A DNA stretch of 63,856 bases, counting the filler, from Collodictyon triciliatum (taxonomy: Eukaryota): assembly GCA_043381765.1 (NCBI GenBank). It is 4 parts of 4 records of this genome, joined end to end, with 100 filler letters (N's around TTAATTAATTAA, not from the genome) between each part and the next. Parts side by side here need not be neighbours in the genome. Positions count along the whole stretch, not along the records: positions 22,193 to 44,113 come from JBHJMP010001161.1; 3 more parts are not named here. One strand, written 5' to 3'. Positions 33,001 through 36,000 of this stretch are shown piece by piece (position 1 is the stretch's first letter; each line of letters begins with the position of its first letter). The notes under the pieces were generated by a model. It was not told the DNA's origin. It ran no database searches and saw only the letters and a list, made by a program, of their open reading frames with translations. A program made the translations under genes and the position numbers.

Positions 33001-36000
33001 AGTTTTATATTCTAAAATTCTTGTATAGTGAAATTCGGTAAGATAATTTATTTTGAACAGATCGTCTCTAGCTGATGCCGACGATAAGGTGCGGCAATAT
33101 GCCAGGCGATGTTTCATTCTGTTTACAAAGAAATGGCCGGAATATGGACAGCGGTAAATAGCTGTTATCTTTATTAGCTTTACTTGCGTTGGTTTTATTT
33201 CACGCAATTTTCTTAACGTTTTTCAAAAGCACAACTAAACAACAAAAGAAGGGAATGTGTCTAATACTTTAGGAGCTTTGAACTCTTTGATAATTTATGA
33301 ATGCATGCAACATTCATTATGTGTAGGCTTCTTGTCACTCTTGACACTTCAGTCCAACGAGCGATTCACCAAGATGTTCACAAAGAGAAATCTGGTTGGA
33401 GAGAATCCCATATTGACGCAAATCAGCCAATCAAATCCGAAAATTCCAGGGTGTCATCTAGTCTGATTTCTCAACTAGAAAACAGCAATTCTTGGGCTAA
33501 TTCCTCAAACCTTTCCGTGCTTTCAAGTATATTTTTTTCGTACAACATCACTTTTATTTGTGCCATTAATACAATATTCTGTTCAACTAATTTATCTAGA
33601 AAATAATATACACATATTTGAACTATACCACTCAAAAAGATTTATCACTACAAAGGCAATGCCATATCAAAACAAACGCAACCCAAACAATCTGGATCGA
33701 ATTTATATTCCAAGATAAATTACAACCCTAATCGGAGTATTACCCCAAATCCTTCAAGGCCTGCCTCTCAAATTCGTTCATCAACACCAACACCGTCTCA
33801 AACTATGAACAGAAAGCATAGTCATAACGAATCATCAACTTCTCAAAAACCTGTGAATACACGCATTGCATGGAACGAATATTCTGAGTCATCAAAGGGT
33901 GGTATACTCGATTCTCATCATAGTTCTCTCCTCGAAATATCTGATATTATTGTTATGGCCGGACAAACCGCGTGGACATCCAGAATATGCGCATTTCAGG
34001 AGTTGGAAAAGTGGATACTTTCAGACAAACTTGTAGAGCTACAGAGTTATACCGATAAATTGATGGCGATGTACATGGAGAGATTGCAGGATACGCACCC
34101 GAAGGTGTTGGTAGTGGTCATGGAATCTTTTCGCAATTTTATGGCTGCATTTCATCAACGAATGGAACCATACTTAGAACGAATCATTTTACGCGTAAGC
34201 ATTTTGCTAAAACAACTAAAAATAAAATTCAAATGACTAATATCGAGTATCATATTCCATTAATCCAACCGCGTGGCACCAAACCAATTAGTTTTTTTTT
34301 TTTAAAAAAAAAAAGCTTACAACTCAAATGAAAAATCCAGGTTATTGAAAGGGTCACTGATAGCCGTGATGTAATTAGACGCATCGCAGCCATTTTATTA
34401 GGTTGTCTCCGACAATTTTACTCTATCGATAAAGTGTATTCTGTTTCGCTTCGGGGTTTAGAATCCATCAACACGAGAATGAAACCAGCTCTTATTGAAT
34501 ACATGACAAGCTTGACTGCAGATAGTGACACATTTTTCTACTCCGCAATTCATATCCACATCATTTCCTCACTTTATTTGATTCAAAATTCATATCCACA
34601 CCATCAATAAGAGCAATAAATTATAGAAATTCTTCAAAGTCGTATGTGTTCTATTAAATCCCTTAACAGGTTCTCACATATCAGACAAACTTTCAACAGA
34701 ATTATACCCTTTTTATGTGAAAAACTTTCCGACTTGCGCGATGCTACCACCAAGCTTTTTCTATCGATATATTCAATCAAGTAAGTAATACCATTTCTAT
34801 TATTATTTATAACGACTTGCGTCGATAAATTTTGCTCACCCAATTCAATCTCTTTCGCTTCAAAGCCCCGAAGGGAGTTTATCGTATATCGAAACATTGG
34901 CCCCTACTGCACAAGTTCCTATTAAACGCTTGCTTATGCAGCACATACATGATTTGCCACACGTATTAAATCTTAACACTACTTATGCATCATTAATCTA
35001 ATTTCTCGAATGGTATAATTCGTGTTGATGAGAAGTAGTTGGATTCACCTCAATATTAATTTTTTTAAAAGAATTTCGATAGGAGCCTAACCCAGGAGAA
35101 TGGCCACCGTAATCAATCGTCTAATTCATTTCAGTTAGTTTTTTTTTTGAAAGTGATTTTGTTTCCTTGAATTTTTTTTTATGGAAAAAGCAACACATCG
35201 ACTGACTTTATATCTTTTAATCACAAGACAATATAGGGCTGGTAATAGTGGTGATTCTACATTGAAGAAATTCACTCAAGTTGAAAAAGTAAGACTTCAT
35301 TTGCAAACATAAGTTCATATGAGAACAAGCAACCCCTATTACGGACATTTATACGGCTGTCAAGTTTGATAAATGATTGTATGCTTGCGTAAGGCACTAC
35401 AGGTGGATGATGATTGTATGGAAAATTCAGGTATGGATGAAAAAGAAAAAAGAAAAAAGAAAAAAGAAAAAAGAAAAAAGAAAAAAGAAAAAAGAAAAAA
35501 GAAAAAAGAAAAAAGAAAAAAGAAAAAAGAAAAAAGAAAAAAGAAAAAAGAAAAAAGAAAAAAGAAAAAGGAAAAAGGAAAAAGGAAAAAGGAAAAAGGA
35601 AAAAGGAAAAAGGAAAAAGGAAAAAGGAAAAAGGAAAAAGGAAAAAGGAAAAGGAAAAAGGAAAAAGGAAAAAGGAAAAAGGAAAAAGGAAAAAGGAAAA
35701 AGGAAAAAGGAAAAAGGAAAAAGGATAAAAGAAGAGATTCAAATATATAATATAACACCTTTTGTTGAACACAGTACTGCATTATTTTTATCTAGCGATA
35801 GTGACCCTAGGCAAAGGTGTATGTTTTGTTCAAATATTTCAACATAGGTCATTCGCATCCGATAGTCATAGAAGATAGAAATGTTCTTCACCGCCAAGGC
35901 AAAGGAAATAGTTTCTCGAAGCGTGGAATAGAATCGTACACTACCAACAGCAAGCTGCTCTCAAAAAATGGGATGCCTTCTCTGGATTCATGGGATTTTG

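Follow-up and report, generated by a model that had tools for sequence, protein, structure and literature searches.

As described in passages of PMC3584512, U12-type (minor-spliceosome) introns are marked by their donor, their branch site, the nearness of that site to the 3′ end (optimum 11–13 nt) and the lack of a pyrimidine tract; donor and branch site are read cooperatively by the U11/U12 di-small nuclear ribonucleoprotein (di-snRNP), and positions +1 to +3 of the donor are not paired by U11 but are read instead by the 48K protein. In the canonical AT-AC form the donor is ATATCCTT, the branch site TCCTTAAC lies 11–13 nt from the end, and the intron closes with AC. Here we describe an AT-AC intron at 34552–34677 on the plus strand of the gene for CLASP (CLIP-associated protein), in a window of 63,856 nt of draft eukaryotic sequence that carries 11 N runs (Collodictyon triciliatum, assembly GCA_043381765.1, four parts joined end to end). 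With canonical U12-type AT-AC introns it shares the termini, the ATATCC core, seven of the eight branch-site positions, the missing pyrimidine tract, a non-zero phase and the lack of G at −1 and at the first exon base. It departs from them in having AC for TT at +7/+8 and in carrying an exact copy of its donor 40 nt inside the intron. That the interval is a real U12-type AT-AC intron we regard as very probable; with less assurance, we favour the fuller reading in which a weak donor is paired with a strong branch site and the twin donor is a by-product of repair, at most a cryptic site.

Two described systems invite closer comparison. The twin donor recalls the U11-binding element known as USSE, which also consists of two tandem U12-type 5′ splice sites (5′ss) in one transcript and whose alternative path also leads to unproductive mRNA. 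In the parts of PMC5473595 and PMC3584512 that treat it, the USSE motifs match the consensus, are unspliced and deeply conserved, lie in SNRNP48 and RNPC3, and switch on a U2-type 3′ splice site (3′ss) upstream of them. At the present locus the two motifs are identical, 40 nt apart and non-consensus at +7/+8, the gene is CLASP, and copy 1 is the donor that the reading frame requires. The other comparison is with Physarum polycephalum, a member of the Amoebozoa, for which portions of a preprint (bioRxiv 10.1101/2020.10.12.336362) describe RTATCYTT(T) donors, a TTTGA branch motif 9–12 nt upstream and a co-evolved U12. Physarum resembles the present case in the apparently high local density of its AT-AC introns and in the exonic ATAT that follows both introns found here; it differs in its motifs, the present introns having classic branch sites and in one case a canonical donor, and in its kinship, the host here being kin to Diphylleia.

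The CLASP gene occupies 30676–37903 on the plus strand. Its TOG2 exon (32522–32770) matches the Pfam profile CLASP_N with an E value of 3.7e-10 (40.2 bits against a cutoff of 27), and a profile-free protein search against 1.84 billion representatives returned 143 matches at E ≤0.001. The best of these (E 2.9e-22, the runner-up standing at 1.2e-13) was P0001, a CLASP of 1278 amino acids (aa) from the EukProt transcriptome of Diphylleia rotans, and the remaining named matches were CLIP-associated proteins of plants, oomycetes, a plasmodiophorid and a fish. A word-based search of longer proteins with the exon at 33622–34194 gave no match at E ≤0.001 among 735 candidates. By tblastn the D. rotans protein aligned with the gene in 17 colinear segments running from 30676 to 37903; one extra match, at 59342–59434, is due to chance. 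Three of the 17 segments contain a further intron and frame analysis added two small exons, so that the gene has at least 22 exons and hence at least 21 introns. The layout of its TOG domains is colinear with that of known CLASPs. As far as this one gene can tell, the host would be a relative of Diphylleia (Diphyllatea, CRuMs), nearest to D. rotans among sequenced species, and not an amoebozoan.

The boundaries of the intron are set by homology and by the reading frame. Around the site, eight dinucleotide types allow 1468 donor/acceptor pairs, and the product of every pair was aligned to the D. rotans protein. The AT-AC pair 34552–34677, which defines an intron of 126 nt with 30% G+C in phase 1, gave the top alignment score of 213 with a gap-free junction, and a colinear, gap-free CLASP protein is obtained against D. 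rotans only if exactly this interval is excised. The AT-AT register 34554–34679, slid by 2 nt, ties at 213 and yields an identical mRNA; because ATATC opens the intron and also the exon that follows, shifting the junction by as much as 5 nt leaves the mRNA unchanged, and AT-AC is the sole canonical boundary pair among these registers. Of the 33 GT-AG pairs, all but two close the frame, and the higher score of the remaining two is 172. Read without splicing, the frame runs into a stop at 34611–34613, while the exons 3′ of the intron stay open with 55–88% identity to the D. rotans protein in the tblastn segments; the interval must therefore be removed. The exon on the 5′ side (34341–34551) ends on the first base of a His codon, and that on the 3′ side (34678–34780) has its 3′ end confirmed by a spliced RNA contig.

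The signals within these boundaries are those expected of a U12-type intron, with one departure. Compared with RTATCCTT, the donor ATATCCAC (34552–34559) has the canonical core ATATCC from +1 to +6 and AC rather than TT at +7/+8. The branch site CCCTTAAC (34660–34667) agrees with the consensus TCCTTAAC at seven of eight positions and places its adenosines 11–12 nt from the last intron base, 34677, within the terminal AC at 34676–34677. It is separated from the 3′ end by AGGTTCTCAC, and since there is no long pyrimidine run upstream either, the intron has no polypyrimidine tract. The AG directly 3′ of the branch site (34668–34669) is not a usable acceptor. C precedes the donor and A opens the next exon; in the part of PMC11347168 that deals with minor-dependent introns, a lack of G at both positions is a mark of them, and phase 1 agrees with the bias of U12 introns away from phase 0 reported in portions of bioRxiv 10.1101/2020.10.12.336362. 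From these features we infer that the minor spliceosome acts on the interval and does so at the first donor copy.

Positions +7 and +8 fall inside the region of the donor that pairs with U11 and U6atac. Substitution of AC should weaken both pairings. No gene for a small nuclear RNA (snRNA) was found in the window: an Rfam scan gave no match at the gathering score and, at E ≤1, a single chance match to mir-130. The weak donor is probably compensated by the near-consensus, optimally placed branch site, because the di-snRNP recognises the two cooperatively. Apart from +7/+8 the CLASP intron is ordinary, and current understanding of such introns is not overturned by it. The initial annotation, made from the sequence alone, had proposed an AT-AC U12-type intron in CLASP with a donor lacking TT at +7/+8 and a near-perfect branch site. 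The CLASP_N match, the colinearity with D. rotans and the first rank among 1468 pairs bear out the intron and its gene, both motif descriptions hold, and all its motif coordinates proved exact when the sequence was re-read; the GT-AG intron ending at the AG at 34668–34669, which it had allowed for, is ruled out by homology (172 against 213).

A second AT-AC intron lies in the same window, at 6460–6678 on the plus strand in RCL1. It is 219 nt long and in phase 2, with the fully canonical donor ATATCCTTA (compare ATATCCTT), the branch site CACTTAAC and a terminal AC. The exon before it matches human RCL1 (7mq8_SH) as far as residue 194 and the exon after it from residue 196 onwards, the intron falling at human residue 195; the RCL1 gene as found spans 6335–6805. 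A supplement file of PMC11347168 lists human RCL1 with a 'minor' intron (chr9:4834266–4841231), and entries for CLASP1 and CLASP2 are absent from that same file. The RCL1 intron may be an ancient conserved minor intron. Because this AT-AC intron with a canonical donor is confirmed by homology, a working minor spliceosome is implied in the host, as judged from sequence.

A motif-and-frame scan for U12-like introns in the window returned 56 candidate rows, of which two (CLASP and RCL1) were confirmed by homology and two were rejected on inspection. One of the latter, at 55940 on the minus strand (GTATCCTTA), sits just after an acceptor, inside an open exon; the other, 53963–53814 on the minus strand, lies inside a continuous open reading frame (ORF) of 202 aa that reads as coding. 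Of the remaining rows, nearly all have two mismatches in the 8-nt branch match and most span at least several hundred nucleotides. No GT-AG U12-type intron was recognised among the 56 rows, most of which were not checked singly. The motif TTTGA is absent from the last 24 nt of both AT-AC introns. RTATCC occurs 63 times on the two strands of the window against 42.35 ± 5.76 expected, and none of 100 shuffles reaches 63; the sites lie mostly in coding sequence, and codon usage may be the cause of the excess. The two AT-AC introns also resemble each other in junction context, each preceded by C, ending in CAC and followed by an exon that begins ATAT(T/C) (6679–6682 and 34678–34682), so that each junction is slidable by 4–5 nt. 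This shared context recalls the rtatctt...aagATAT intron ends given for Physarum in the portions of the preprint cited above, and may reflect a proto-splice-site preference or chance.

The twin donor ATATCCAC lies at 34592–34599. Its use would give an 86-nt intron and a frameshift, with a stop only a few codons into the next exon by frame analysis. It belongs to a longer repeat: the 14-mer AATTCATATCCACA has two exact occurrences, 40 nt apart, at 34547 and 34587, so that the copies are identical from −5 to +9, and the repeat grows to 18 nt at 17/18 identity. Allowing up to two mismatches, the 14-mer has three matches in the window, a number reached by 16 of 100 shuffles and so not significant. 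Exact direct repeats of at least 14 nt within 100 nt of each other are few: leaving out a microsatellite of 10-nt period at 1034–1144, only four non-low-complexity pairs exist in the whole window. The other three, of 16–18 nt and 39–54 nt apart (3182/3224, 47408/47447 and 50403/50457), sit in apparent introns or non-coding DNA. Their spacing is like that of the twin donor and suggests that copying over short distances has happened repeatedly in this genome.

The second donor copy forms part of a 28-nt intronic patch (34587–34614) made of two pieces. The first (34587–34604) is a direct copy, at 17 of 18 positions, of 34547–34564, which spans the exon end and the donor; it meets, with one shared T, an inverted copy (34604–34614) that matches the exonic segment 34488–34498 at 11 of 11 positions. 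No other inverted repeat of at least 11 nt in the window has its arms within 150 nt of each other. Because both templates include coding sequence conserved with Diphylleia, the intronic patch would be the derived copy. A diverged 40-nt tandem duplication was considered and set aside as unlikely, the 26 nt behind each copy being unrelated by eye and a repeat search giving the 18-nt match only. A role in RNA structure was likewise set aside: a 171-nt fold has z = +0.31 and a 231-nt fold, in which an 11-bp helix between exon and intron forms, has z = −0.41, so that neither exceeds shuffled sequence in stability. In a second data set (run X2, below) the exonic arm is substituted at 34493 and the intronic arm has no compensating change, which argues against a conserved helix.

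We propose that the patch arose by templated insertion during double-strand-break repair, or by a replication template switch, and would have been built from the direct copy of the exon end and donor plus the inverted copy of the exon. The twin donor would then be a by-product and at most a cryptic donor, giving a frameshifted, prematurely terminated transcript; that it has no dedicated function is, on our assessment, somewhat the better supposition. The parts of PMC7165422 that describe polymerase-theta repair report insertions of 3–30 bp identical to flanking DNA, in direct- and inverse-repeat classes, the longer ones arising in several rounds and being AT-rich. The CLASP patch is likewise short and AT-rich, combines direct and inverse copies, has templates within about 120 nt and is joined at one shared nucleotide; it differs in that its tracts, 18 and 11 nt long, exceed what one round of synthesis typically yields. 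For that reason a replication template switch (MMBIR, described in part of PMC8421209) is an equal candidate.

RNA-derived sequence bears on splicing in this region. Three runs of one study (X1, X2 and X3) had small word shares with the window and were only presumed to be RNA, none being recorded as such. X2 was the only run to yield contigs, five in all, at a depth of a few reads, and such contigs drop rare variants. One X2 contig is spliced at the GT-AG introns 34781–34865 (joint 34780 to 34866) and 35134–35227 (joint 35133 to 35228), and is therefore RNA-derived. The same contig (contig 5) retains a third GT-AG intron, 34963–35071 (GTATTA...AAAAG), whose removal is demanded by the frame and by the match to D. 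rotans; within it, X2 differs from the window by two deletions, of 2 nt at 34983 and of 1 nt at 35060. Both donor copies are present in X2, which is 95–99% alike to the window. On the choice between the donors the X2 contigs say nothing.

It could be supposed that the interval is not minor-spliced at all, being either a U2-type AT-AC intron or unspliced sequence in a truncated or decaying gene. U2-type AT-AC introns reportedly exist, and the RNA contigs keep the interval at a depth close to that of the exons beside it. But the signals that define a U12 intron are present (ATATCC together with CCCTTAAC 11–12 nt from the AC, and no pyrimidine tract), all downstream exons are open and conserved against Diphylleia, and the same contigs keep a GT-AG intron as well, so we hold this to be highly improbable. 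A lineage with expanded, transformed minor introns like those of Physarum, in which U11 and U6atac have changed, +7/+8 are free and ATATCCAC is a normal donor, would account for two AT-AC introns in a 64-kb window estimated, without a count, to hold about 100 introns, which is some ten times the human AT-AC share (reportedly about 0.1%), and for the excess of RTATCC. Yet the other AT-AC intron carries the canonical ATATCCTTA, both branch sites are classic where a TTTGA 9–12 nt upstream would be looked for, and the scan recognised no GT-AG U12-type intron. By comparison with animals the density of AT-AC introns is high, but the figure comes from two events, with a very wide confidence interval, in a window noticed because of them. 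With one canonical donor and two classic CTTAAC-type branch sites, relaxed recognition of the Physarum kind, which the initial annotation had suggested, is therefore not supported, and the kinship with Diphylleia also speaks against it; a further AT-AC intron does exist in the window, that of RCL1, but a transformed lineage seems to us quite improbable.

The twin itself could be functional, two U12-type 5′ss 40 nt apart forming a USSE-like U11-binding element that boosts the weak donor or serves as a switch coupled to nonsense-mediated decay (NMD). Tandem U12-type 5′ss that bind U11 and regulate splicing are known from the described parts of PMC5473595 and PMC3584512; here the copies agree at every base from −5 to +9, the authentic donor is weak, use of the second leads to a premature stop, one of four local repeats happens to cover one of two U12 donors, and both copies recur in X2. 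USSE sites nevertheless differ in sequence, gene and action as set out above, acting unspliced from SNRNP48 and RNPC3 on an upstream U2-type 3′ss, whereas here one copy is a real donor with a non-consensus motif in CLASP. Moreover, a functional origin does not explain why an inverted, unrelated piece of the exon is joined to the copy, neither donor is used in any X2 contig, and the evidence for conservation reaches only about 1% divergence. We judge a functional twin unlikely. The initial annotation was right that the donor recurs 40 nt downstream and that use of the copy breaks the frame; for the decoy or NMD switch that it envisaged we found no evidence, and the compound patch of direct and inverted copies is explained more simply by a repair accident.

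The reading of a weak but real U12-type donor with a repair-derived twin must itself be set against several observations that weigh the other way. X2 contigs at 34344–34587 (depth 3.7) and 34560–34720 (depth 2.7) keep the AT-AC intron unspliced, and the spliced AT-AC junction is not seen in the five X2 contigs, X1 and X3 having given none. As the GT-AG intron 34963–35071 is also retained, this retention is not specific to the AT-AC intron and is weak evidence. The argument about pairing at +7/+8 draws on general knowledge of the snRNAs and not on those of this organism. As to the patch, Markov controls lead one to expect about 3.8 inverted 11-mers per window by chance, so that the argument rests on the exact abutment of the two copies, which was noticed after the fact; the synthesis tracts of polymerase theta rarely exceed 10 bp in the relevant passages of PMC7165422, against 18 and 11 nt here; and the polarity and age of the insertion are inferred from one genome without an outgroup locus. 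With just four local repeats and two U12 donors in the window, the coincidence of a repeat with a donor could reflect selection for the twin. Relatives' genomic loci were sought in metagenomes: one scan found no relative among 126 pattern matches, and in a second, two of 159 matches (L001 and L002) proved to be due to chance by tblastn with the full CLASP (best E 0.019).

With the CLASP and RCL1 introns, working minor-spliceosome introns are now placed in a relative of Diphylleia. A full-text literature search found no paper linking Diphylleia or CRuMs with minor splicing, and the main text of a large 2023 pan-eukaryotic survey leaves these taxa unnamed. The twin donor is in effect a natural experiment, presenting the di-snRNP with a choice between two donors, alike at every position from −5 to +9, of which one stands nearer than the other to a single branch site. 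As alternative splicing at U12 introns is nearly absent according to passages of PMC3584512, real use of the twin would therefore be of interest. The compound patch suggests templated insertion as a route by which tandem U12 motifs such as those of USSE first arise. A bolder combination, in which U12 introns are several-fold denser in the deep-branching Diphyllatea/CRuMs than in animals and the twin is a USSE-like landing pad for U11, strikes us as very unlikely; if true, a tandem U11 landing pad would rescue a degenerate 5′ss or divert CLASP transcripts to decay, and such tandem elements would arise from repair-templated insertions.

Upstream of the AT-AC intron lies a GT-AG intron of 146 nt (34195–34340, plus strand; GTAAGC...CAG), assigned from flanking exons that align gap-free to the D. 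rotans protein; downstream, also on the plus strand, follow the three GT-AG introns described above. The segment 34104–34118 is probably a fold-back artefact of the library or assembly. Long purine-rich microsatellites of the GAA/AAG type flank or interrupt the CLASP gene at 29502–30174, 32322–32517 and 35272–35847, and one of them holds an N run. Elsewhere in the window there are two very long unbroken ORFs, one of 1766 aa at 9511–14808 on the plus strand and one of 922 aa at 38759–41524 on the minus strand; unlike these two, the other genes of this genome are split into many short exons.

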